The notes under the pieces are model-generated. The model had not been told where the DNA came from, did not search any database, and saw only the letters and a program-made list of their open reading frames with translations. Below are positions 6,343-22,010 of a DNA stretch of 64,000 bases, in pieces (the first letter of the stretch is position 1; each line of letters begins with the position of its first letter). The translations under genes and the position numbers were made by a program. Source of the DNA: Rhabdothermincola salaria (lineage in GTDB: Bacteria > Actinomycetota > Acidimicrobiia > Acidimicrobiales > Acidimicrobilacustridaceae); the NCBI RefSeq assembly GCF_021246445.1, contig NZ_JAJQXW010000003.1:186001-250000 (forward strand), read 5' to 3'.

Positions 6343-7803
6343 ATGATCCGATCCCACGTGGTCGTCGATGGATCGAACATCGCGACCGAGGGGCGCACCA
6401 GCCCCAGCCTGCGCCAGCTGGACGACGCAGTGAAGGCTTTCCTCGACGAGCACGCCGTCGAGACCCTGACGGTCGTCGTCGACGCCACCTTCCCCAACCG
6501 CATCGAGCCATCCGAGCGCGCCGAGTACGAAGAGGCGATCCTCGCCGGCGAGCTGGTGACGCCCCCCGCGGGGGCCATCGGCCGAGGCGATGCCTTCATC
6601 CTGCAGATCGCCGAGAAGGTCGGGGCCACGGTCCTGTCCAACGACTCCTTCCAGGAGCTGCACCCCGCCCATCCCTGGGTGTTCGACGAGGGTCGCCTGA
6701 TCGGCGGCAAACCGGTGCCCGGCGTGGGCTGGGTGTTCCTGCTGCGGTCGCCCGTGCGAGGCCCGGTGAGCCGCCGAGCGGTGCGCGAGGCCAAGGACAA
6801 GGACCGACCGCGCGAGAAGAGCGACGACGGCCGGCGGCGCTCGCAGAGCGAAGGCAAGTCCAAGCGCCCCAAGGGCGGCGGCGAGACCAAGACCGCCGGC
6901 GACAGCTCGTCCAAGGACTCGAAGCAGTCCAAGGAGCGGAGGAACCGTCCCGCCAAGAAGCCGGCCGAGCCCCTCAACGAACCCCTTCCCTTCATCGAGT
7001 TCGTGGCCGCCCACCCGATCGGCAGCACCCTCGAGGGCAAGGTCGAGACGTTCTCCTCCCACGGCGCCTACGTCGAGGCCGGCGGCGCCCGCTGCTACGT
7101 GCCTCTCAAGCTGATGGGCGACCCACCGCCGAAGCGGGCTCGTGACCTGATGACCATCGGCGAACGCCGGCTGTTCGCCGTCCACTCCCTCGATACCCCC
7201 CGACGCGGGATCGACCTGGCCATGGTCGACGCTCCGCCGATCAGCTCGCCTCGCCCCGACGACGACGCCGAGACGACGACAGCCCCATCCAGTGAGTCGC
7301 CTCAGCATCGTCCCCCCACGACATCGGACGGGCCGCCGGCCGACTCTGTTTCCGCGGCAACGAAGCCGCGTCGCGGTCGCCGATCGGGGGCACCAACCAC
7401 CACGGACGTTGACGCAGTTGGTACAACTACGCGATCCGATCAACACGCCGAGGAGGCGACGGTGACCCCAGCAGCGAAGAAGGCCCCGGCCAAGAAGGCG
7501 CCCGCGAAGAAGGCACCCGCCAAGAAGACCGCGGCGAAGAAGGCGCCCGCCAAGAAGGCACCCGCCAAGAAGACCGCGGCGAAGAAGGCGCCCGCCAAGA
7601 AGGCACCCGCCAAGAAGACCGCGGCGAAGAAGGCGCCCGCCAAGAAGGCACCCGCCAAGAAGACCGCGGCCAAGAAGGCGCCCGCCAAGAAGGCACCCGC
7701 CAAGAAGACCGCGGCCAAGAAGGCGCCCGCCAAGAAGGCACCCGCCAAGAAGACCGCGGCCAAGAAGGCACCCGCCAAGAAGACGACCTCGCGTCGCCGC
7801 TGA
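6343..7803 (+). CDS. NYN/PIN-like ribonuclease domain + S1-like domain + histone H1-like PAKK tail
   Basis: [29 protein letters not shown] (PIN/NYN acidic residues). S1-like [21 protein letters not shown]-terminal [10 protein letters not shown] repeats. Confidence 0.8.
7462..7803 (+). CDS. Possible nested in-frame histone H1-like protein (113 aa)
   Basis: AGGAGG at 7451-7456, 5 nt before in-frame GTG 7462 at the start of the PAKK tract. Confidence 0.55.
7477..7785 (+). repeat. Coding tandem repeat: 15-bp units arranged in ~45-bp higher-order units ([15 protein letters not shown])
   Basis: Repeated aagaagaccgcggc(g/c)aagaaggcgcccgccaagaaggcacccgcc. Confidence 0.95.
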
Positions 7804-11196: not shown

Positions 11197-12522
11197 TCAG
11201 CCCAACCCGAGCCGGTCGGGAGCCATCGCCCGCTCTCGCCACTCGCCGTCGGGCACGTGGCGAGCGACCTCCTCGGTGAGCAGACGACGCAGCACCTCGA
11301 CCGCCGCTTGGTCGTCGGGTCGTCGCGCCGCGGCCCGCACCGCGTCGAGCGCGGCCACCAGCCGCCGCGAGATCTGGGGCGAGGACGCGCCGTACAAGAT
11401 GATCTCGGTGAACCCGAGGTCGAGCAGGCGGCCGAAGGTGGCCACTGGCCGCACGACGCGCACCACGCCCTCGTCGTCGTGGTAGATGCCGTCGGGGTCC
11501 TCCCGCCCGGCGGCCAGCACCAGCAGCTCCTCGACGCGCTCCAACGCCTGGAGGGCCGTGGTCGGGTCGTTGACCGCCGGCGACAGGGCCTTGGAGGCCA
11601 CGTCGACGAGCTGGCGCAGCCCGTAGGAGGGGTCCTGGTAGAGGTTGCGCTCGACGCCGAGGTGGAAGGCAGAAGCCAACCGGGCGGGATCGACCGGGGT
11701 GCCACCGTGCAACCGGGCCACCAGCAGGCCGTGGTGCACGTGCACCCCGATCTCGGTGGTGAGCTCGATCACCGTGTCGTGGGCCACCGCCAGCTCCACC
11801 AGCGGGGGGATGCCGACGCCTTGCAGGACCCCGGACCGCCGGCGCCAGTGCACCACCGAGGTGATCGGGCCCAGCTCGGGAACCTCGACCGGCTCGTCGT
11901 GACCCGTGGCCGCCCGGTTGGCGACCACCGCCCGGCGGGTCTCCTCGGCGATCGTCTCGACCACGACGCTCACCTGCATGGCCCGCACGATGGCGTGCAC
12001 GTAGAAGACGAACACGACGAGGCAACCCATCGTGCCCAAGACCACCATCAGCAATGAGAAGACGGGGACGAAGGGGTCGCGGCCCAGCTCGCCCTCGAGG
12101 CCGGGTGCACCGGCGTCGAGCTGCAGCATCACCATCAAGGCGAAGAGGAACGTGCCCAGGAAGATGCCGAGCGTGAACTTGGTCAGGGGGGCCCGCACGA
12201 AGGTGCGCAGCAGGCGGGGCGAGTACTGCTGGCTGGCCAGCTGCAGGGCCACGATGGTGATCGAGAACACCACACCGAGGAAGGTGAGCAACGCCGGCGC
12301 GATGGTCGTGATGACGGCGCGGGCGTCCTCGACCGACCACCACGTGGCGTCGGCCTCGGGCTCGTAGGCGATGGCCTCGTCGATCCCCTCGCTGACCAGC
12401 CCCAACACGAAGGCCACGGCGAGGCACCCCATGGGGACGACCCACAGCGAGGAGCGGATCGTCTCGACCCACTGCGACCGCTGGGTGTTGCGTCGTTCGA
12501 TGGGCGCGACCGTGCTCGACAT
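11197..12522 (-). CDS. DUF2254 family membrane protein
   Basis: FSITIVALQLASQQYSPRLLR and QDPSYGLRQLVDVASKALSPAVNDPTTA. Confidence 0.9.
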   Translation of the reverse strand: MSSTVAPIERRNTQRSQWVETIRSSLWVVPMGCLAVAFVLGLVSEGIDEAIAYEPEADATWWSVEDARAVITTIAPALLTFLGVVFSITIVALQLASQQYSPRLLRTFVRAPLTKFTLGIFLGTFLFALMVMLQLDAGAPGLEGELGRDPFVPVFSLLMVVLGTMGCLVVFVFYVHAIVRAMQVSVVVETIAEETRRAVVANRAATGHDEPVEVPELGPITSVVHWRRRSGVLQGVGIPPLVELAVAHDTVIELTTEIGVHVHHGLLVARLHGGTPVDPARLASAFHLGVERNLYQDPSYGLRQLVDVASKALSPAVNDPTTALQALERVEELLVLAAGREDPDGIYHDDEGVVRVVRPVATFGRLLDLGFTEIILYGASSPQISRRLVAALDAVRAAARRPDDQAAVEVLRRLLTEEVARHVPDGEWRERAMAPDRLGLG

Positions 12523-12635: not shown

Positions 12636-14261
12636 ATGGCCGTGACTCCCCCCACCGAGCCCCTCTCCCGCCCCGAGGACGATGCCCCGAACGACCTGTC
12701 GATCGGGGCCTTCTCCGACGACCCGCCGTGGCTGGTCGACCCCGAGGTGATGCCCTGGCGGGAGGCCGTCGACGCCGTGCGCTGGGTCACCCGGGCCCAG
12801 CTCCCCGACCTCATCCGACCTCGCCGACTCCCACGCGGTCGTCGGGTCTTCACCGTCGTGCGCCGCCTCGGCACCGCCCTGTTGCCCTGGTACCTGATCG
12901 ACCGGCGCAAGGGACGCGAGCTCAGCCGGGCCGGCCTCTCTCGACGGTTGCGCATCGCCGCCGAGCACCTCGGCCCCACCTACATCAAGCTCGGTCAGAT
13001 CATCTCCTCCGGTGAGGGGCTCTTCCCCGAGGAGCTGGTGACCGAGTTCAAGAAGTGCCGGGATCAGGTCCCGCCCCAACCGTTCCGCGACGTGCGCACC
13101 ATCATCGAGACCGACTTCGGGCGGCCCCTCGAGGACGTCTTCGCCGCGTTCGAGCGCACGCCGTTGGCGGCAGCATCGATCGCCCAGGTGCACGCCGCCA
13201 CCCTCCACACCGGCGAGCAGGTGGTGGTGAAGGTGCAGCGGCGCACCGTGGGCGAGCGGGTCCACGCCGACCTCGAGGTCATGGCGTGGCTGGCCCCGTT
13301 CCTCGTCGGCCGCATCCCGATCGCCGCGCTGGCCAACCCGCCGGCGCTGGTCGAGCTGTTCGCCGAGACGATCACCGAGGAGCTCGACTTCCGGCTCGAG
13401 GCCCAGAACATGCTCGACGTGGCGGCGTCGTTCGTCGAGCTCGGGCAGCGCGGCTACGTGGTGCCCCGCCCCCACCCCGAGCTCGTCACCCCCCGTGTGC
13501 TCGTCATGGAGCGCCTCGACGGCTTCAACTTCGACGACGTCGCCGCCATGAAGGACGCCGGCGTGGACACCCACGCGGTGGTGCGCACCGGCATGATCGG
13601 GTTCATGGAAGGGGCCCTCATCTGTGGCATCTTCCACGGCGACCTGCACGGCGGGAACCTGTTCGTGATGGCCGACGGCCGCACCGCCCTGCTCGACTTC
13701 GGCATCACCGGGCGCATGGGGGAGGCGCAGCGCCTGGCGTTCCTGCGCCTGTTGCTGGGGGCGACCACCAACGACGTGCGCACCCAGCTGGCCGCCCTGC
13801 GCGACCTGGGAGCGCTGCCCCTCGACACCGACCTCGAACAGGTCATCGTCGATCTCGACCTCGAAGGCGCCCCCATCGACCCGACGTCGTTGACGCCCGA
13901 CGAGATGATCCACGAGATCCAGCGGGTGGTGAAGCTGCTGCTGGGCTACGGCGCCCGGATGCCCAAGGAGCTCATGCTCTACGTCAAGAACCTGGTGTTC
14001 CTCGACGGGGCCATCGCCCGCCTCGCCCCCGACCTCGACCTTTTCGCCGAGATCACCAGCATCGCCATGCACTTCACCCAGACCCACGGCCAGCGGATCT
14101 TCACCGACATCGGGGTCGATGCCGCCGGCGTCGAGTTCGACTTCACCGGGGTGAAGGCCGGGTTCGGCGTCGACCCGGGCATGGAGCGCCTCACCTACCG
14201 CGAGCTGCAGGCCCGGCGTGAGCTGATCCGCTCCCGCTTCGAGGACCGCGAGGTCTCCTGA
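12636..14261 (+). CDS. AarF/ABC1/UbiB family atypical kinase
   Basis: LGPTYIKLGQ, AAASIAQVH, VVVKVQR, FHGDLHGGN, LLDFG. Confidence 0.93.
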   Translation: MAVTPPTEPLSRPEDDAPNDLSIGAFSDDPPWLVDPEVMPWREAVDAVRWVTRAQLPDLIRPRRLPRGRRVFTVVRRLGTALLPWYLIDRRKGRELSRAGLSRRLRIAAEHLGPTYIKLGQIISSGEGLFPEELVTEFKKCRDQVPPQPFRDVRTIIETDFGRPLEDVFAAFERTPLAAASIAQVHAATLHTGEQVVVKVQRRTVGERVHADLEVMAWLAPFLVGRIPIAALANPPALVELFAETITEELDFRLEAQNMLDVAASFVELGQRGYVVPRPHPELVTPRVLVMERLDGFNFDDVAAMKDAGVDTHAVVRTGMIGFMEGALICGIFHGDLHGGNLFVMADGRTALLDFGITGRMGEAQRLAFLRLLLGATTNDVRTQLAALRDLGALPLDTDLEQVIVDLDLEGAPIDPTSLTPDEMIHEIQRVVKLLLGYGARMPKELMLYVKNLVFLDGAIARLAPDLDLFAEITSIAMHFTQTHGQRIFTDIGVDAAGVEFDFTGVKAGFGVDPGMERLTYRELQARRELIRSRFEDREVS

Positions 14262-14440
14262 GCGTGGTGGTCGGGCGCCACCGCCTCGGCGACGTCGTGC
14301 TCGCCCGCGCCGCGGACCGTCGAGAGCCACCCGGAGCCGGCTGACCAACACCCCGGCGCACCGGTCCCCGGTTGGCGGAAGCACACCCTGCGACCCCTAC
14401 TGTGAAGCGCTTCGACCGACGCAGGGGGATGGGACCAGCC

Positions 14441-15928
14441 GTGACCGAGATGTCCGTCGTGGAGCCGACGGCGGCCCGATCCGGCGAGGGCGGCTGGCGG
14501 GAGCTGGCGACGGCGGCGTTCGTCGTCGTGATCTGCGCCCAGGCCGCCTCGGGCATGGTGCAGGGCGCGGCGCCGATGGCGCTACCGGCCATCAGCGCCG
14601 ACCTCGGGGCCTCCAGCAGCGCCATCCAGTGGTACGCCTCGCTGTTCCCCCTCGGCTTCGCTCTCGTCTTGATCCTCGCCGGACGCGTGGGAGACCTCTT
14701 CGGGACCCGACGGCTGTTGCTGCTCGGCTACGGCGCCGTGGTGGCCGCCCTGGTGCTCAGCGCGGTGGCGCCGACCACCCCCGTCCTGCTCGTGGCCCGA
14801 CTCCTGCAGGGCGTGGCCACCGGGGTCATGGCCCCGCAGCTGTCGGCCACGATCCAGCGCCTGTTCCAGGGCCACGGCCGCACCCGGGCCTTCGCCGTGT
14901 TCTTGATGGCCACCGGTGGTTCGTTCATGCTCGGCCAGCTGGTCACCGGTGCCCTCATCACGTCGGACCTCATGGGCCTGAGCTGGCGCTGGGCCTACCT
15001 CCCGTCCATCCCCTTCGCCCTGGCGACGCTCGTCGCCGCCTGGCGCGTGCTGCCCCGCACCTTCCGGGGCACCGCCGGGCGTCTCGACCTCGTGGGCGCC
15101 GCCGCGCTGGGCATCACCGCCTTCTTGTTGATGTTCCCGGCCATCCAGGGTCGCAACGCCGGATGGCCGCTGTGGCTCGTCGTGATGTTGGGGTCGTCCG
15201 TCCCCGCCTTCCTCGCCTTCCTCGCCTACGAACGGCGGGTGATCGACCGGGGCGGGGATCCGCTGGTGAACCCGACGCTGTTCGCCATCTCGTCGTTCCG
15301 GGTCGGGAACCTCATCACCGTCGCCGTCAGCCTGATCACCTACGCGGTGCCGATCTACATGATCCTGACCATCCAGTCCGGCTTCGGGCGCACGCCGTTC
15401 GAGGCGGCGCTGCTCACCGCTCCCATGCCCTTCGCCAACATGTTCGGTGCGCTGCTCGCCGCTCCACTGGTTCGCCGCCTGGGCCGAGGCGCCGTCGCCG
15501 TGGGCGGGCTGCTGACCGGCCTGTCGTCGATCCTGGTCCTGGTGGCCACCGCCGGGTCCCCCGACACGGTCGAGGCCACCCACCTCCTCCCGGGCATCGC
15601 CCTGCTCGGCTTCGCCTCGGGCATCTCGATCGCGTCGACCATGAGCATCGTGCTCCACGAGGTGCCCCCGGCCTACGCCGGGGCGGCGGCCGGGGTGCAG
15701 TCCACCAGCCTCCAGCTCGCCGGTGCGGTGGGCATCGCCTTCTTCGGCATGGTCTTCTACGGCGCGATCGCCGAGTCCACCGACAAGGCGGCCTACCTCA
15801 CCGCCATCACCGACGTGCAGTGGATCGCCGTCGGTCTGGCCCTGCTGCAGACCATGGCGGTCGTGTTCCTGCCTCGCCACCGACCTCAGCCACTCGATCC
15901 CGCCGTTCCCCTCGACGCAACGGCATGA
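14441..15928 (+). CDS. MFS transporter (DHA2-like); start approximate
   Basis: Motif A GRVGDLFGTRR, ARLLQG, many TM helices. Confidence 0.88.
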   Translation: MTEMSVVEPTAARSGEGGWRELATAAFVVVICAQAASGMVQGAAPMALPAISADLGASSSAIQWYASLFPLGFALVLILAGRVGDLFGTRRLLLLGYGAVVAALVLSAVAPTTPVLLVARLLQGVATGVMAPQLSATIQRLFQGHGRTRAFAVFLMATGGSFMLGQLVTGALITSDLMGLSWRWAYLPSIPFALATLVAAWRVLPRTFRGTAGRLDLVGAAALGITAFLLMFPAIQGRNAGWPLWLVVMLGSSVPAFLAFLAYERRVIDRGGDPLVNPTLFAISSFRVGNLITVAVSLITYAVPIYMILTIQSGFGRTPFEAALLTAPMPFANMFGALLAAPLVRRLGRGAVAVGGLLTGLSSILVLVATAGSPDTVEATHLLPGIALLGFASGISIASTMSIVLHEVPPAYAGAAAGVQSTSLQLAGAVGIAFFGMVFYGAIAESTDKAAYLTAITDVQWIAVGLALLQTMAVVFLPRHRPQPLDPAVPLDATA

Positions 15929-15955
15929 CCCACCGCCGACTCGGGCCTGGCTCGC

Positions 15956-16186
15956 GAGCACCTCGGCGGGTATCGCCTCCGGTTGACCTTCGCCGACGGC
16001 TTGGTCGGTGACGTGGACCTCACCGACCGTTGTGCGAACCCACGGGGACCGATGTTCGAGCCACTTCGCGACGTCGAGTTCTTCGCCCGGGTTGCGATGG
16101 ATCGCGAACTCGGCACCGTGGTCTGGCCGAACGGCGCTGACCTCGCTCCCGAGGCCCTCCACGAGCAAGCCCTGAGCCTCGCCTGA
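15956..16186 (+). pseudogene. DUF2442-family (putative antitoxin) fragment, 5'-truncated
   Basis: EHLGGYRLRLTFADG..DL..GPMFEPLRD..FF..GTVVWPNGADLAPE. The frame runs back to the MFS stop codon with no start upstream of the homologous region, and no DUF4160 partner is present. Confidence 0.7.
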
Positions 16187-16189
16187 AAG

Positions 16190-16216
16190 GCACCTCCATC
16201 CGGCGTTCGGAGATGC
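16190..16216 (+). repeat. Cassette-boundary site A
   Basis: GCACCTCC-AT-CCGGCG-TTC-GGAGATGC, 3 nt after the DUF2442 stop. Confidence 0.7.
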
Positions 16217-16329
16217 TCGCCCGGCGATGACCGCCCCCAACTCGTAACCTCCGGGGCATAGGGCAGCGCGGGACTCATGCGCATCGGCTGGAGATGCGAA
16301 CCGCGGCTGCTCCGATGGGAGCGCGTGCC

Positions 16330-16977
16330 ATGTCCTTCTTCGGACCTCCGCCGGATTCCCCGACCGGGATGCCGATGGAGCCCCCGAAGTGGGGCCCACC
16401 AGTGTGGGATCGGCCCGCGGAGGACACTCTCGGGGTCTCAGTCGGCATGTCAGTGGTCTTGGCGGTCACCGACGAGCACGCCGTCGTCTTCGACAACGTG
16501 CACGCCTTCTCCAACGGCTTCACGTTCGACTTGGTACAGATGCGCAACCCGAACATCCCGGTTGACTTCTCACAGATGCACCAGCGGCCCATGTTCATGA
16601 ACGGTCCGCGACTTGGCTTTGAGTTCGTCGACGGATCCATCGTCACCACCGAGCAGCCAGGGATTCCAGCAGTACCTGGCGGCGGAGCTCCCGGCGGGTG
16701 GTCATCGACGACCATCTCGGCCGCAGCGGCCTCCTCGGAGAGGCCAGGCTTCGACGCCGAAGGTGTGCCGACCGGGCACGTGCTGCGAACGCGCGGCAGC
16801 GGCGGGTCCCAGTACCGGCAAGCCACCGAGCTCTGGTGCTTCCGTCTACCGCCACCGGGACCGATGACGATCCATGCCGACTGGCCCGATCACTTTGACG
16901 AAGTGGCCATCGATGTCGACGCCACTCCGATCGTCGACGCCGCGGGCCGTTCGAGGATCCTGTGGCCTAGAACGTGA
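16330..16977 (+). CDS. Hypothetical protein (cassette cargo)
   Basis: 215-aa ORF with a Pro-rich N-terminus and LWCFRLPPPGPMTIHADWP; stop codon lies inside site B. Confidence 0.75.
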   Translation: MSFFGPPPDSPTGMPMEPPKWGPPVWDRPAEDTLGVSVGMSVVLAVTDEHAVVFDNVHAFSNGFTFDLVQMRNPNIPVDFSQMHQRPMFMNGPRLGFEFVDGSIVTTEQPGIPAVPGGGAPGGWSSTTISAAAASSERPGFDAEGVPTGHVLRTRGSGGSQYRQATELWCFRLPPPGPMTIHADWPDHFDEVAIDVDATPIVDAAGRSRILWPRT

Positions 16978-17003
16978 CCCGCATAGCCGGTGCTACGGGG
17001 CGC
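16974..17003 (+). repeat. Cassette-boundary site B
   Basis: GTGACCCG-CATAG-CCGGTG-CTA-CGGGGCGC; contains the stop codons of both flanking genes. Confidence 0.6.
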
Positions 17004-17157
17004 CCGGCTGGGAACGAGCGACCAAGACGCCAGATGGATGTGCCGGACCTGCGTCGCCGTCCTGGCGAGTGCAGCGGGTTCCAACGACCACTGCAAAGAC
17101 CAGGAGGGCCACGAAGAAAGCGGCGATGATCCACTGCGTTCTCGTCTCAGGTGTCAC
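16993..17157 (-). CDS. Small membrane protein, 54 aa (cassette cargo)
   Basis: AGGAG RBS before GTG 17157; single TM WIIAAFFVALLVFAVVVG. Confidence 0.6.
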   Translation of the reverse strand: MTPETRTQWIIAAFFVALLVFAVVVGTRCTRQDGDAGPAHPSGVLVARSQPGAP

Positions 17158-17240
17158 GGCTCTCCTCAGCGTCCCAGCTGCGCCGATGGGCTGGCAAACG
17201 CGTCCGAGCGTGAGACGACGCGGGCCTCTCTCCGGTTCCC

Positions 17241-17270
17241 GTGTCACCCACTCCCGGCGTTCAGAGGCAC
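17241..17270 (+). repeat. Cassette-boundary site C
   Basis: GTGTCACC-CACTC-CCGGCG-TTC-AGAGGCAC. Confidence 0.7.
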
Positions 17271-17275
17271 TTGGC

Positions 17276-17572
17276 TTACTCGTGGAGAGCCTCGGAGACG
17301 ATGAGATCGAGGCGTTGGCCCAGGTGATCGCGATAGAGGCCATTGCTGCTCCGGAGCTTCGCGCCCGGGAACGTGGCGCGCAGTGCTGCCTCAAGGGCGG
17401 CGCGTGCAGCTCTTGGATCCGGCGCCGCTCCGACCTCGTCTACAACCCGTGTTGCAACGTCATCCCAGTAGTTCCCGTCCCAGTGGCTCTCAGTCAGCCA
17501 TGGCTCCAACACCTCGACCTCGCGCATCGCTGCCGACCATCGTCGGACTAGCTCGTCCCGCGCCGCCGCCAT
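17276..17572 (-). CDS. Hypothetical protein, 98 aa (cassette cargo)
   Basis: ATG 17572 lies 7 nt after a TAGGTT -10 box; stop is 5 nt from site C. Confidence 0.6.
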   Translation of the reverse strand: MAAARDELVRRWSAAMREVEVLEPWLTESHWDGNYWDDVATRVVDEVGAAPDPRAARAALEAALRATFPGAKLRSSNGLYRDHLGQRLDLIVSEALHE

Positions 17573-17609
17573 AGGGCCCAACCTATCGATCAGCTGCCGC
17601 CACCCAGGA

Positions 17610-17638
17610 GCATCTCCTTGTCCCGGCGAAAGGGACAC
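17610..17638 (+). repeat. Cassette-boundary site D
   Basis: GCATCTCC-TTGTC-CCGGCG-AA-AGGGACAC. Confidence 0.62.
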
Positions 17639-17647
17639 GTCGTGCTG

Positions 17648-17956
17648 TCAGAAGTGCAGGCGCCGTCCCTGGTCTTCGTCATCCGGTGCGTCGTTGAAGT
17701 CTCTACCGATCAGCCAGACCAGCCCCCGCTCTGGTGTCCCGTCCGGCATCAAATCGCGGACCAGTGCGATCGACCACCGCCGATCGGGACCCGCCTCGGT
17801 ACGTGCCCAAGCGATGACCTCACTCACATCTGAGTCACTGATGTCGAAGGTCTCGGCCGAGTAGGACGGGCCGGCTCCGCTGAAGACGTACACCCGGAAG
17901 ACTGCTCCGTGGTCCTCCCAGCCGCAGTCTCGTTCATCCACAGGAGTGACGCGCAC
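17648..17956 (-). CDS. Hypothetical protein, 102 aa (cassette cargo)
   Basis: VDERDCGWEDHGAVFRVYVF..DVSEVIAWA..RGLVWLIGRD; TAGGGT -10 box 6 nt before GTG. Confidence 0.75.
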   Translation of the reverse strand: MRVTPVDERDCGWEDHGAVFRVYVFSGAGPSYSAETFDISDSDVSEVIAWARTEAGPDRRWSIALVRDLMPDGTPERGLVWLIGRDFNDAPDDEDQGRRLHF

Positions 17957-17980
17957 GCTCGGACCCTACCGATCAGACCT

Positions 17981-18006
17981 GGTTTCCTTCCGGCGTTCTG
18001 AGACGC
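17981..18006 (+). repeat. Cassette-boundary site E
   Basis: GGTTTCC-TT-CCGGCG-TTC-TGAGACGC. Confidence 0.65.
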
Positions 18007-18045
18007 GAGCGTGGCGGCGAGCAGGTCCCGGTTAGCGTCGCCCGA

Positions 18046-18396
18046 GTGGAAGTGGTTCAACCGGTGGGGAGGGTGGCTCGCGCAACGGTGCGAGTGGTGC
18101 TGGTCGGACTCCTTGCAACCACCGGTCTCATCGTCATCGGGGTGGCCCTCGCCTTTCACTTGTGGCAGAGGGAGGCGGCTCGGATCAGCTGCCCGATGGG
18201 CTACTTCTTCGATCCCGGAGATTGGATGGGGCTAGACCCGCCCGTGTGCCGGAGCGAGTCGGGCTCGTCAGCTCTACCCCTGATCCACGACTTGGCCTGG
18301 TGGGAGCCTTGGTGGTCCACCCTGCTCCTTGTGGCCGTGGTCCTGCTCTGCGTCGGGACAGTGCGGAAGCTGGGCGGCGTTGTCTGGCGCGTGTAG
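18046..18396 (+). CDS. Small two-TM membrane protein with a Cys pair (cassette cargo)
   Basis: Two hydrophobic helices flank a C..C loop; TAGCGT -10 box 7 nt before GTG. Confidence 0.65.
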   Translation: MEVVQPVGRVARATVRVVLVGLLATTGLIVIGVALAFHLWQREAARISCPMGYFFDPGDWMGLDPPVCRSESGSSALPLIHDLAWWEPWWSTLLLVAVVLLCVGTVRKLGGVVWRV

Positions 18397-18431
18397 ATCG
18401 CAGGCCACTCGGAGTCTCGTCGACGCCGAGA

Positions 18432-18461
18432 GGTCCCCCTATGGCCGGCGATCTGGGCACC
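18432..18461 (+). repeat. Cassette-boundary site F
   Basis: GGTCCCCC-TATGG-CCGGCG-ATC-TGGGCACC. Confidence 0.68.
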
Positions 18462-18494
18462 AGGGAGACCGGGCGGTCGGGTGGTGGGCCTGTG

Positions 18495-19481
18495 TCACTG
18501 CACTGATAGGGGGCCACTGATTGGTTGGCCGTCGGCGCTGGTCGCGGAGACGGTGATTGTCACGGGTAGCGGGATCACCGACATGACTCCGAGAGCACCC
18601 GGGAGGTTGCCGTCGGCGGCCACGACCAGTTCGTTGGTCGTGGAGTCGAGTTGTCCGGCGAGCTGGACCTCGTAGGTGAACGTCGACCCCGGTTCGAGTC
18701 CGCTGGCGGTGAGCAGCACGGTGCCGTCGCGCTCGGCGCACACCTCCCCCTCTCCGGCCGAGAGGCACGATCTGGCGGGTTCGGCCGAGATTGAGACGTC
18801 CTCGATTCCGTTGGCGGCGACGAAGGCCCGCCACCCGGGGTCATCCACGCGTCCGAGGGCCCCGATGGTTTCGACCAGCGGGCTAGAGCCGATGTCGGGC
18901 GCTGCGCAGAGGCGTCCGGTGTCGTCGCCTCGGACGAGCAGGTCCACGGACAGGGACCCCTCGAGCCACACCGCGGTGGCCGCTGCGTTGCCCTGCGGTC
19001 CCGGTTCATCATCGATCGTGGGCTCATGGCCGCAGTGGACGTACACCGAGCCGATCCCGTCCACTTCGATGGCTTCCGCTCCTGCCGCCCTCAGCTCCAG
19101 GTACTCCTCGGAGGGCTGTTCGCCGGCGAAGTCGAGCTGGGTCAGCTGGTAGGGCTGTCCGTCGACGGTGAAGTTGATCGTGGAGCCGCCCGGCACCTGG
19201 ATCCCCGAGATGTCCGTCGCGTCGAGGGGAGGGACGAGGTAGCTCCCCGCGCCCGATGTCACCGGGATTGACGCGTCGTCGCGGGTGAGCACGACTGCGG
19301 CGATGCCCCCGACGACGAGCACCATGGCGGCCACGGCAAAGACGATGGACCGTCGGCCACGGGCCAGGACCTCAGGTTGGGTGGCGTAGTCGCCCACGGC
19401 CGTCGCGTCTTGGATGTCGACTCCTGACAGGTTGCGGTGGGCGAGGGCTCGGAGTTGTTCTTCGAGTGGTCGACTCATCAC
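18495..19481 (-). CDS. Putative membrane-anchored anti-sigma factor/sensor
   Basis: LEEQLRAL N-terminus, one TM, large extracytoplasmic domain; overlaps the stop codon of the ECF sigma gene. Confidence 0.65.
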   Translation of the reverse strand: MMSRPLEEQLRALAHRNLSGVDIQDATAVGDYATQPEVLARGRRSIVFAVAAMVLVVGGIAAVVLTRDDASIPVTSGAGSYLVPPLDATDISGIQVPGGSTINFTVDGQPYQLTQLDFAGEQPSEEYLELRAAGAEAIEVDGIGSVYVHCGHEPTIDDEPGPQGNAAATAVWLEGSLSVDLLVRGDDTGRLCAAPDIGSSPLVETIGALGRVDDPGWRAFVAANGIEDVSISAEPARSCLSAGEGEVCAERDGTVLLTASGLEPGSTFTYEVQLAGQLDSTTNELVVAADGNLPGALGVMSVIPLPVTITVSATSADGQPISGPLSVQ

Positions 19482-19936
19482 GCCTCCTCTCCCTTGAGGT
19501 CACGGCGAAGCCGGGAGAGGCCCCGCCTCACGAGAGTGCCGATGGTGGACTCGGATCGTCCGGTCATCCGGGCCACGTCGGCCTTGGACCAACCGCAGCC
19601 GACCACCAAGAACACGGCGAGGCGTTGCTTCTCCGGAAGTCGCCCGAGGGCGGAGGCGAGCGCCGGCTCGTACTCTGGGGGCGCCTCGACCGGCAGCAGG
19701 TACTGCGGAGGGATCCGTTTGCGGCGAACGCGGGTCTGGGAGCGGCCGACCTTGAACAGGTAGCCGACCGGGGATTCCATGGCCATCACCCGATGCCGGT
19801 GCTCCCACGCGTAGGCCATGGCCAGCGCGTGGCCGTCCTCACCGCGGTCCGGGCCGAGCGCGCCGATCAGCGCCTGACGGAGCGGGACGCCCACCTTGAC
19901 GGCGAACTCGTCGAAGCTCTGGTCGTTCTCCACCAT
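19478..19936 (-). CDS. ECF (SigE-like) RNA polymerase sigma factor
   Basis: AMAYAWEH..SPVGYLFKVG; region 4 LPEKQRLAVFL..GWSKADVARMTGRSESTIGTLVRRGLSRLR. Confidence 0.88.
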   Translation of the reverse strand: MVENDQSFDEFAVKVGVPLRQALIGALGPDRGEDGHALAMAYAWEHRHRVMAMESPVGYLFKVGRSQTRVRRKRIPPQYLLPVEAPPEYEPALASALGRLPEKQRLAVFLVVGCGWSKADVARMTGRSESTIGTLVRRGLSRLRRDLKGEEA

Positions 19937-20102
19937 CGGTTCCAGCGTCCGCCCTCCGTTGCTCACAGTACCTAGAGGCAACAACGCACCGAGATCCGCG
20001 ACACCGAAGGCCACCCGCCCCGCCCGGCACCACTGCAGGACACCCGGAGGGGGGTTCGACGGTGCCCAGGCGGGTTGTGCAGCAACGAGAAGGGTCGTGC
20101 TC

Positions 20103-20130
20103 GCGTCACCCAGCCGGCGTTAGCGGACAC
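20103..20130 (+). repeat. Cassette-boundary site H
   Basis: GCGTCACC-CAG-CCGGCG-TTA-GCGGACAC; TTA is the stop codon of the adjacent gene. Confidence 0.65.
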
Positions 20131-20359
20131 CCGAGCCCGAAGCCCCTCGGTCCTTCCTATACATCGCCTCGAGTGCGGCCCAGATCCCAACGGCGACCAC
20201 CAGCATGCCGAGCACGACACTGAAGTAGATCCACCGGGCCGCCTCGGCTTCCTCGACGACACCCCGTACGAGGGCCACGACGGATCCGAAGGCGAGAAGC
20301 CGCACCAGCCAGCGCCGGCGTCGCCACCAAGGCCAGTCCCGTGTTCCGTCATCCGCCAT
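20120..20359 (-). CDS. Small two-TM membrane protein (cassette cargo)
   Basis: 79-aa ORF with two hydrophobic segments, between sites H and I. Confidence 0.6.
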   Translation of the reverse strand: MADDGTRDWPWWRRRRWLVRLLAFGSVVALVRGVVEEAEAARWIYFSVVLGMLVVAVGIWAALEAMYRKDRGASGSGVR

Positions 20360-20391
20360 GAGGCACACCTACCCTGTCGGTACTCCTGAGA

Positions 20392-20420
20392 GGTCCCCAA
20401 GACCCGGCGATCAGGGGCAC
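20392..20420 (+). repeat. Cassette-boundary site I
   Basis: GGTCCCC-AAGAC-CCGGCG-ATC-AGGGGCAC. Confidence 0.7.
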
Positions 20421-20554
20421 TGTCAGAACCAGCGTGCCGGGGGTGAGGTGGGCGCCTCGTCGTGTGGTCCACGACAGGACTCATTGCGGTAGTTCGACGG
20501 CCGGGTTACGTTGCAGGCGCCTCTCGGGGGAGGGGCATTCCTGGCGGAGGACTC

Positions 20555-21058
20555 ATGGTGGACAAGGTCAACGTGCTGCTCCCGGCGATCGCAGTGTCGA
20601 AGTACGTGCGTGTCGGTGTGGTGGCGATTGGTCTCACGGGTGCTCTGGCTGGGTGTGGCTCGACGACGGACAGCACGGCGACGACCACCACCACGCAGGC
20701 TCCTGCCGCGACTGGCACCTCAGACGTAGTGTCGCCGCCGATCACCTGGGGTGGTGGGGGAGACATCGGCGGGATGGAGGCCATCATCATCGGCGACCTG
20801 GACAGCGACGGGCACTGCTGGGGGATTGACCTCATTGGCGACGAAGGGCGAGCCCTGGTCGCATGGCCGAAAGGCACCCAAGCCGAAGGTGACGCGGTTC
20901 GCTTCCCAGACGGGTCCCTCCACCGGCCGGGGGATCGGCTCGAGGATGCCGGGGGCCGCGTATCCCTCGACGCGAATCTGGCCTCGATGATCGGCGCCGA
21001 GGCCGAACGCCTCCAGTCGTGCCGCCAAGGCGAAACCGACGTTGTCTTCATCAACTGA
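20555..21058 (+). CDS. Putative lipoprotein (cassette cargo)
   Basis: GGAGG RBS, lipobox LAGC, Thr-rich linker, GDL..GHCW..LVAWPKGT domain. Confidence 0.7.
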   Translation: MVDKVNVLLPAIAVSKYVRVGVVAIGLTGALAGCGSTTDSTATTTTTQAPAATGTSDVVSPPITWGGGGDIGGMEAIIIGDLDSDGHCWGIDLIGDEGRALVAWPKGTQAEGDAVRFPDGSLHRPGDRLEDAGGRVSLDANLASMIGAEAERLQSCRQGETDVVFIN

Positions 21059-21119
21059 CCCCCAACGACCGGTCACGCAAGGCGGGGGTTCGCCGTCGGC
21101 TCCCGTCCCTGCGAGACCT

Positions 21120-21146
21120 GGGGCCGTCATTGGCGCTGATGGGCAC
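21120..21146 (+). repeat. Degenerate terminal cassette-boundary site K
   Basis: GGGGCCGT-CA-TTGGCG-CTG-ATGGGCAC. Confidence 0.45.
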
Positions 21147-21245
21147 CTCACGGTCCTGCCACCAGCGACCTGACCAATCTCACACGCCACGGAGCGCCGC
21201 CTCGCCGCACTAGCTCGGCGCCCACGCCCATCGCACCACAGTCCA

Positions 21246-21277
21246 TCGGTGGCTCGGTGGCTCGGTGGCTCGGTGGC
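21246..21277. repeat. Simple sequence repeat (TCGGTGGC)x4
   Basis: Four perfect 8-bp copies upstream of nucS. Confidence 0.95.
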
Positions 21278-21350
21278 GCCGGGGGTGCCATCAATGTGCC
21301 GATATGGGACGGCCGAGCGGAGTCATCGGCTCACCTAGCCTGGCGGGGTC

Positions 21351-22010
21351 ATGCGTCTCGTCATCGCCCGCTGCTCGGTGGACTACGACGGCCGGTTGTC
21401 GGCCCATCTCCCCCTCGCTCCCCGCCTGATCATGGTGAAGGCGGACGGGTGCGTGGCCATCCACGCCGACGGCGGGGCCTACAAGCCGCTGAACTGGATG
21501 AACGCGCCGAACCGCCTGGTGGAGGAGGAGGGCCGCTGGGTGGTCACCAACCCCAAGGGCGAGACCCTCACGATCACCCTCGAGGAGGTCCTCCACGACT
21601 CGGCCCACGAGCTCGGGCTCGACCCGGGGCTGCAGAAGGACGGCGTGGAGGCCCACCTCCAGGAACTGTTGGCGGCCGACCCCAACACGATCGCCGACGG
21701 CCTGGTGCTGGTCCGCCGGGAGTTCCCCACCGACATCGGCCCGGTCGACCTGCTCTGCCGCGACGGTGACGGCCGGGCCATCGCCGTCGAGGTCAAGCGG
21801 CGGGGCGACATCGACGGCGTCGAGCAGCTGGCCCGCTACCTCGAGCGCCTCGAGCGCGACCCCACCCTCCGGCCGGTGCGGGGCATCTTCGTCGCCCAGC
21901 AGATCAAGCCCCAGGCCAAGGTCCTGGCCGCCGATCGCGGCATCGACTGCGTCGAGGTGGACTACGACGAGCTCCGTGGCATCGAGTCCAACGTCCTGAA
22001 GCTCTTCTGA
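21351..22010 (+). CDS. nucS: Mismatch-specific endonuclease NucS/EndoMS
   Basis: [55 protein letters not shown]-terminal clamp-binding-like LKLF. Confidence 0.97.

Follow-up and report, generated by a model that had tools for sequence, protein, structure and literature searches.

The locus and its genes

We analyzed a 64,000-nucleotide stretch of the genome of Rhabdothermincola salaria, a member of the Acidimicrobiia (contig NZ_JAJQXW010000003.1, positions 186,001 to 250,000 of the forward strand; hereafter the window, with positions counted from its first letter), and in particular a block of small genes lying between positions 15,930 and 21,150. An earlier note, made from the sequence without database searches, had proposed that this block is a gene-cassette array in which the genes are separated by co-oriented recombination sites of about 30 bp that differ from the attC sites of integrons. 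The block sits between a gene for a 541-amino-acid protein (window 12636 to 14261) and nucS, which in the four congeners G001 to G004 are separated by 83, 85, 113, and 558 bp. Because the flanking genes nearly abut in these four congeners, the segment at 14262 to 21350, which holds a gene for a major facilitator superfamily (MFS) transporter and the array, is best read as an insertion. The earlier note had held that a mobile block should not be kept in a fixed order by relatives, and indeed it is absent from the locus in all four congeners. At the DNA level, conservation across 40 relatives was confined to nucS and to paralogs of the MFS gene. The G+C content of the block is 0.65 to 0.70 versus 0.72 for the genome, and the G+C content at third codon positions (GC3) of its open reading frames (ORFs) is 0.69 to 0.84 versus 0.96 for nucS.

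14262 to 21350, no strand assigned: inserted segment, consisting of the MFS gene and the cassette array, absent between the same two genes in four congeners
14372 to 15928, forward strand: MFS transporter gene within the inserted segment, with a native-like GC3 of 0.93
21351 to 22010, forward strand: nucS, the conserved right flank

The nine sites listed by the earlier note are present as quoted, all on the forward strand, and thus form a series of direct repeats. In the following list, scores are those obtained with the independent matrix described in the next section.

16190 to 16216, forward strand: site A, core CCGGCG at 16200, 24.9 bits
16974 to 17003, forward strand: site B, core CCGGTG at 16987, degenerate
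17241 to 17270, forward strand: site C, core at 17254, 29.8 bits, the top-scoring site of the genome
17610 to 17638, forward strand: site D, core at 17623, right arm short by one base
17981 to 18006, forward strand: site E, core at 17990, 15.0 bits
18432 to 18460, forward strand: site F, core at 18445, one G missing in the right arm
20103 to 20130, forward strand: site H, core at 20114, 24.7 bits
20392 to 20420, forward strand: site I, core at 20404, 28.1 bits
21120 to 21146, forward strand: site K, core TTGGCG at 21130, the weakest site and the right end of the array

The core-to-core spacings from A to K are 787, 267, 369, 367, 455, 1669, 290, and 726 bp. Each interval was said to hold one gene or one coupled gene pair in either orientation, and the ORF calls agree: the intervals between cores contain either a single ORF or, in one case, a sigma factor gene with its putative anti-sigma partner. 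The units face either way, four on the forward strand and five on the reverse strand.

15983 to 16186, forward strand: DUF2442 ORF, N-terminally truncated, with a Pfam match that begins at profile position 15 of 72
16294 to 16977, forward strand: cassette ORF of 227 amino acids, no family, with an 80% DNA homolog in an array of G001 (contig C32)
16993 to 17154, reverse strand: ORF for a small membrane protein of 53 amino acids, which occupies the interval between B and C, with a GGAGAG ribosome-binding site before its GTG start and an 84% DNA homolog in an array of G001 (contig C18)
17276 to 17638, reverse strand: cassette ORF of 98 to 120 amino acids, likely start ATG at 17572, no family
17648 to 17956, reverse strand: cassette ORF of 102 amino acids, no family, with a 91% DNA copy at C3:150240-150602 in a second array of the same genome
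18046 to 18396, forward strand: cassette ORF of 116 amino acids, hydrophobic, no family
18495 to 19481, reverse strand: putative anti-sigma factor of 328 amino acids, no family match, overlapping the sigma factor gene by 4 bases
19478 to 20014, reverse strand: extracytoplasmic function (ECF)-type sigma factor, Sigma70_r4_2, with a match to the SigE-family subfamily below its cutoff
20120 to 20368, reverse strand: cassette ORF of 61 to 82 amino acids, hydrophobic, no family
20462 to 21058, forward strand: cassette ORF of 167 to 198 amino acids, likely a lipoprotein from the ATG at 20555, with a signal ending in LAGC in translation

Searches of these ten cassette proteins against Pfam, NCBIfam, and PADLOC returned only DUF2442 and the ECF sigma factor. 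The DUF2442 ORF, which has a weak likeness to the DhiA antitoxin, represents the remnant of the left-most cassette. Since it is truncated and a search of the MFS side of the inserted segment found no recognizable site, the left end of the array has probably been lost. A bare CCGGCG does occur at the left insertion junction (window 14340 to 14375), and the same hexamer is found in the empty spacers upstream of nucS in G002 and G004 (L017 and L018); it may mark a secondary target site or simply reflect chance at 72% G+C, where this hexamer is common.

A co-oriented site that is enriched and clustered

When the nine sites were aligned on their cores, the right side proved to be gap-free, reading CCGGCG followed by W-T-C-N-G-G-G-R-C-A, and the core was almost invariant, as CCGG(C/T)G. 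The left arm is looser, approximately GYGTCMCC, and stands 2 to 5 bases from the core. As a plain pattern, the right half of the motif as written in the earlier note showed mild enrichment at most, with 4 matches in the window versus 1.26 expected, a number reached by 8 of 100 shuffled sequences, with all four matches inside the block and on the forward strand. To avoid circularity with the sites of the earlier note, an independent matrix was built from 145 unique sites that adjoin a tyrosine recombinase gene in other genomes, none of them from R. salaria or its genus. This matrix was used to scan the whole 3.9-Mb genome, with three second-order Markov genomes as background. At a threshold of at least 20 bits the genome yielded 11 matches versus a mean of 1.0 in the Markov genomes, and 4 of these lie inside the 5.3-kb block, all on the forward strand; at 14 bits or more there were 34 matches versus 9.7 expected, and five of the 34 are block sites (A, C, E, H, and I), again all on the forward strand. 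The proposed enrichment and clustering over a composition-matched background is therefore borne out.

The good matches outside the block are grouped in a handful of small clusters, each co-oriented and associated with low-GC3 genes, which are themselves placed between core genes with a GC3 of 0.93 to 0.98:

C3:147757-151969, reverse strand: further small array with low-GC3 genes, containing the 91% copy of the 102-amino-acid cassette
C2:398533/399475, forward strand: further small array with co-oriented sites
C3:396992/397676, forward strand: further small array with co-oriented sites
C2:141072-142358 and C1:18069-18875: further small arrays with co-oriented sites and low-GC3 genes

The sites had been described as imperfect palindromes. 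Short inverted arms are present, as claimed, but their folding shows no signal beyond composition, and conservation is uneven, being stronger in the right arm than in the left. Folding energies were −16.1 kcal/mol for real junctions, −16.2 for random half-site chimeras, −16.1 for predicted circle junctions, and −15.7 for arm-shuffled sequences. A model in which the sites act as attC-like folded hairpins was dropped, as neither the real nor the circle junctions fold better than the chimeras. There was also no conserved GTTRRRY in the 145-site alignment, where the positions past the core read W-T-C-N-G-G-G. The view that the sites are distinct from attC thus holds: what is conserved is about 30 bp long and has neither GTTRRRY nor a hairpin signal. 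Given that real junctions fold no better than controls and that GTTRRRY is not conserved, the site looks like a short duplex-type recombinase site with a conserved right arm, a loose left arm, and a conserved center in which exchange would take place, which follows the principle of dif-type sites (as described in general in bioRxiv 10.1101/758037) rather than that of attC hairpins.

Sequences of this kind at gene ends might instead be REP-like (repetitive extragenic palindromic) or regulatory palindromes, bound by proteins or resembling terminators, that serve as hot spots for homologous or illegitimate recombination. Such an origin would suit their location at gene boundaries, their imperfect palindromy, and the overlap of some of them with stop codons, as at site B. 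The dispersal over intergenic DNA that is typical of REP sequences and bacterial interspersed mosaic elements was not seen, the matches being few and clustered (no search for the associated RAYT gene was made); 4 of the 11 best genome matches fall in 0.14% of the genome. Nor do the sites follow the genes, as they remain co-oriented whatever the gene orientation (87 genes co-oriented and 85 opposite in the related arrays treated below). They fold no more strongly than composition predicts, no Rfam family matched the window at gathering thresholds, and the breakpoints of recurring cassettes coincide with the cores. We regard REP-like or regulatory palindromes as a very unlikely explanation.

Recurring cassettes break at the core

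Three cassettes of the window have DNA homologs in other arrays. The cassette at window 16202 to 16989 has its homolog in contig C32 of congener G001 (80%), that at window 16984 to 17261 in contig C18 of the same congener (84%), and that at window 17623 to 17984 in a second array of the R. salaria genome (91%). In all three, the homology starts in or just past one core and stops at the next, with no relation between the half-sites outside these limits. When 88 stretches were compared all against all, seven cassette-sized pairs emerged in which 2 to 4 of the 4 alignment ends lie no more than 25 nucleotides from a core; in two of these pairs all 4 ends do so. Single cassettes that recur with breakpoints in the core, which the earlier note had expected of an array, are thus found both in the window and among related loci.

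Metagenome contigs from three sequencing runs, each a single contig of low depth, lend weak support to breakpoints at the core. Their likeness to the block starts at 16987 to 16989 (the core of B) and at 18444 (the core of F), two contigs start at 18444, and the sequence ahead of the B or F core differs from that of the block. No run contained more than 8% of the sampled sequence words from the block, and neither joints nor circles were present in the contigs examined.

An Xer-like recombinase in related arrays

Congener G001 carries three arrays, two of which enclose an ORF of 163 amino acids and a tyrosine recombinase of 302 amino acids, the whole bounded by oppositely oriented sites. The recombinase has Phage_integrase and SAM_1 domains, and its sequence contains the catalytic residues R157, H245, R248, H271, and Y280 and a GKGAK lysine motif. 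It scores 108 bits against XerC (cutoff, 335) and 101 bits against XerD (cutoff, 330). Against the integron integrase profiles it scores 44.5 bits (TIGR02249 cutoff, 265) and 25.9 bits (NF011946 cutoff, 435), and the match covers only the C-terminal 60 or so residues. Among solved structures, those of XerA and XerD are the nearest, and IntI4 is at the edge of detection. An IntI-type insertion is lacking, since the spacing from the catalytic arginine to the HxxR motif is 88 residues versus 101 in the Xer protein of the R. salaria genome itself. The 163-residue partner had no match in Pfam or NCBIfam. The third array of G001 is bordered by a gene for a 388-residue phage-type integrase (L021, 6311 to 7477, contig C32) that is unrelated to the array recombinase, and this array may lie in or beside a separate integrated element.

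A search of genome contigs found 280 relatives of the recombinase, mostly in MAGs (metagenome-assembled genomes) of Acidimicrobiia. The best 80 of the 280, mostly MAG contigs, form the sample for all counts of sites, polarity, and layouts given below; they are 71 to 83% identical and come nearly all from MAGs of Acidimicrobiia and other Actinomycetota, plus Salinilacustrithrix flava. Of 151 sampled genomes of the order, 18 contained a recombinase homolog at an E value of 1e-60 or below. At least one site is present at 72 of the 80 loci and three or more at 37, and in total 291 sites were found in 1.18 Mb of loci versus about 20 per 3.9 Mb of Markov sequence scanned with the same matrix. The polarity of the sites is close to uniform. 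Upstream of the recombinase, 144 of 147 sites lie on the strand opposite to the gene (144 minus, 3 plus), which means that the gene is transcribed away from that array, like intI; downstream, none of 59 loci had an array that mixed strands. Two layouts recur: in 19 loci the recombinase stands between mirror-oriented arms (−,+), 14 of these with a homolog of the 163-residue gene, and in 11 loci it is a unit within a co-oriented array (−,−), often with PIN/RHH genes after it.

The R. salaria genome contains no copy of this recombinase, only two Xer-like genes with 33 to 37% identity to it. A survey of five genomes of the genus found the recombinase only in G001, with G000 (R. salaria itself), G002, G003, and G004 having only Xer-like genes at the same level of identity. 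Since its genome lacks the recombinase, we would class the window array as an orphan, in the sense of the clusters of attC sites lacking an integron-integrase (CALINs).

The enzyme acting on these sites could also be the host XerC/XerD pair, with the recombinase borne by some arrays dispensable, in the manner of pdif modules or of integrative mobile elements exploiting Xer (IMEX), which borrow host Xer enzymes. This would explain why small arrays, at least four of them, persist in the R. salaria genome next to no more than two Xer-like genes, and the short inverted arms around a conserved 6-bp center may resemble dif, whose general layout is given in the available text of bioRxiv 10.1101/758037. 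The dedicated recombinase and the sites, on the other hand, occur together at 72 of 80 loci and with a near-perfect polarity relative to the gene. Within the genus, strong arrays with many matches above 20 bits occur in the recombinase-bearing G001 and also in G000, whereas G002 and G003 have XerC/D but no match above 18.4 bits. The arrangement differs as well, pdif modules being bounded by inverted sites and the array sites being direct repeats. Action by the host enzymes is in our view unlikely.

Content and turnover of related arrays

The related arrays provided 189 intervals with a median length of 728 bp. From the 157 array ORFs called, 11 recombinase or partner genes and 7 further ORFs were excluded, and the remaining 139 were scanned, of which 78 had a Pfam family. 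The enzymes include GNAT acetyltransferases, methyltransferases, and members of the glyoxalase/bleomycin-resistance, APH, ANT(2'')-like, PNPOx, and ABM families; other cassettes encode regulators, sigma factors, PIN/RHH proteins, and ParE/Phd and MazEF pairs. No immunity families were seen among the 139 ORFs. One locus has a gene for an IS110-family transposase (DEDD_Tnp_IS110 plus Transposase_20) in a cassette position (L060, 4295 to 5398), possibly a parallel to the IS1111/IS110 elements, which use the attC sites of integrons as targets.

Arrays of small units might have accumulated as a stack of decayed integrative elements, each of which arrived with its own recombinase, as a unit of recombinase and toxin-antitoxin genes, and later lost it, so that no platform for capturing cassettes devoid of a recombinase would exist. 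In favor of this are the 11 loci in which the recombinase is a unit between co-oriented sites, often with PIN/RHH genes behind it. The median unit of 728 bp, though, is too short to have held a recombinase gene of 900 bp, and copies of the same cassette in different arrays have no recombinase remnants. This explanation shares its mechanism with the one we prefer, capture into a cassette array, and differs from it in history alone; we think it scarcely likely.

Two pairs of loci illustrate how the arrays change. L074 and L079 share a 4.6-kb flank and the recombinase module at 98 to 99% identity, but the module points the opposite way with respect to the flank, and the intervening arrays of 4 to 5 kb share no alignment of 100 bp or more. 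Identity ends at a core at both ends of the module and at the end of the flank, so that one half of each site is identical between the two loci and the other half is unrelated. In L063 and L066, both flanks are swapped around the recombinase module. These outcomes are the ones predicted for recombination between sites of opposite arms together with exchange of cassettes. The flanks of L063 and L066 are 95 to 97% identical and the module between them is 86% identical, which suggests that the recombinase module itself has been exchanged between arrays. L074 also contains a half-site at 11492 to 11530 that agrees exactly with a full site of L079 in its left arm and core and then runs into unrelated, AT-richer sequence and a gene for 428 amino acids, possibly a junction between array and chromosome or the product of an illegitimate event.

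A model for the arrays

The sites, their polarity, the breakpoints, the association with the recombinase, and the turnover of arrays, all of them seen by comparing sequences, point to a common scheme. A cassette would run from a right arm through one gene or a few, pointing either way, to the left arm that follows. Strand exchange would take place in or beside the core, which is the point where cassette copies begin and cease to be homologous; as the core is invariant, comparison cannot place the cleavage more exactly. Catalysis would be the work of the Xer-like tyrosine recombinase of about 300 amino acids. In related Acidimicrobiia this enzyme lies within the arrays, either flanked by mirror-oriented arms, where the partner gene of about 160 amino acids often accompanies it, or as one of the cassettes of a co-oriented array, where a PIN-type toxin-antitoxin pair often comes next. 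Recombination between direct sites would excise or insert cassettes, presumably as circles, and recombination between sites of the mirror arms would invert the segment between them. The cassettes would probably carry their own promoters. The array of the window would be an inherited and partly decayed orphan that could be remobilized only if the enzyme were supplied in trans.

Several points weigh against this scheme. All of the evidence is comparative, and no recombination was observed; the R. salaria genome lacks the recombinase, and no finding ties past movement of the window array to it. With the independent matrix, B, D, F, and K, four of the nine sites, do not reach 14 bits, and their degeneracy is plain from the sequence. 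The inserted segment has no bounding site at its left end, and the codon usage of the MFS gene within it is native-like. In the all-against-all comparison, 180 of 205 nonrecombinase alignments between loci have no end near a site; these look like ordinary conserved flanks, judged as a group rather than singly. The cassettes shared by the window are 80 to 91% identical to their homologs, a divergence similar to that of the core genes of the two species; the sharing events would thus be old, and vertical inheritance with later rearrangement may be among them. Salinilacustrithrix flava (L104), the sole named cultured genome of the 80, has only one site of at least 16 bits within 10 kb of its recombinase. 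The survey of related loci has biases of its own: the first matrices were seeded from the sites of the earlier note, so that calls in other loci favor look-alikes, gene calls came from a crude custom caller that left 72 of the 189 intervals without a gene, and most loci are MAG contigs.

With these points taken into account, we consider it highly probable that site-specific recombination built the block as one arm of a gene-cassette array. The proposal of a cassette capture or shuffling system with a different site of about 30 bp is supported by the enrichment of the motif, the insertion at the locus, the core breakpoints, and the non-attC character of the sites.

Other features of the window

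Approximately 70 bp upstream of nucS, at window 21248 to 21280, there are three and a half tandem copies of GGTGGCTC in a poorly alignable junction region. At window 7470 to 7790, many offset and overlapping BLAST alignments to relatives suggest an internal tandem repeat in a conserved gene, present in the relatives too.

Comparison with known systems

The XerC/D-dif systems, namely, the pdif modules of Acinetobacter plasmids and IMEX, share with the arrays described here a short two-armed site, a 6-bp exchange center, modules bounded by sites, and an Xer-type enzyme. They differ in that the arrays have a dedicated single recombinase that scores far below the XerC and XerD cutoffs and have direct repeats in long series rather than inverted pairs. 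Shufflons, in which Rci acts on sfx sites, shuffle the alternative ends of one gene. Several opposite sites around or near one recombinase, and inversion between near-identical loci, are common to both kinds of system, but the units of the arrays are whole unrelated genes, and the arrays differ in content as well as in order.

The closest parallels are with integrons and CALINs. As in these, co-oriented sites form arrays with one or a few unrelated and mostly small genes per unit, the recombinase is transcribed away from the array, content turns over between close relatives and is rich in toxin-antitoxin pairs, acetyltransferases, and genes without an assigned function, and arrays without a recombinase exist. 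The pattern of one ORF per site with variable array content is likewise that of an integron. The cassette ORFs of integrons, however, are mostly co-oriented and driven from a platform promoter, whereas here 87 genes are co-oriented with the sites and 85 are opposite. The array recombinase is Xer-like and lacks the IntI signature (44.5 versus 265 bits), and no IntI-type integrase was found at the locus or in the genome. The sites are about 30 bp long versus 57 to 141 bp for attC, have neither GTTRRRY nor a hairpin signal, and cross over in the middle. Moreover, the genes face either way, the arms can be mirrored around the recombinase, and the recombinase can be a cassette. IntegronFinder 2.0 reported no complete integron in Actinobacteria, and surveys find integrons almost absent there, according to the available text of PMC9024848.

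No published description of such arrays in Actinobacteria or Acidimicrobiia was found in open-access text. The kind of system does have a precedent, and the nearest published one that we found, going by the available text of its report, is rAID-1 of Bacteroidales, in which XerD-like recombinase arrays carry immunity genes separated by repeats (bioRxiv 10.1101/471110). As described there, rAID-1 and the present arrays both place a tyrosine recombinase of the XerD family beside small acquired genes, with repetitive intergenic sequence and skewed G+C content. The genes of rAID-1, according to the same text, are co-directional, lie downstream of the recombinase, and encode mostly immunity proteins, whereas the Acidimicrobiia arrays are of mixed gene orientation, are mirrored or enclose the recombinase, and belong to another phylum; the two recombinases are compared here by description only.

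Taken more broadly, we lean slightly towards the view that Acidimicrobiia, and possibly other Actinomycetota, possess a widespread and separately arisen analog of the integron, with an Xer-like recombinase, short duplex-type sites, mirror arms that swap content by inversion, a recombinase that can travel as a mobile cassette, and orphan arrays that act as dormant libraries which a visiting recombinase can reactivate. If this is true, a separate cassette system would explain the trade in small accessory genes in part of the phylum. Tools based on attC would not see sites of 30 bp with a simpler Xer-type enzyme, and orphan arrays would be recognizable from sequence alone. Related arrays contain cassettes resembling aminoglycoside-modifying and bleomycin resistance genes, and the system would therefore bear on the movement of resistance genes in the environment. 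Where integrons pair IntI with a long folded site, the arrays described here would pair a compact recombinase with a short one, a combination that is directly testable.

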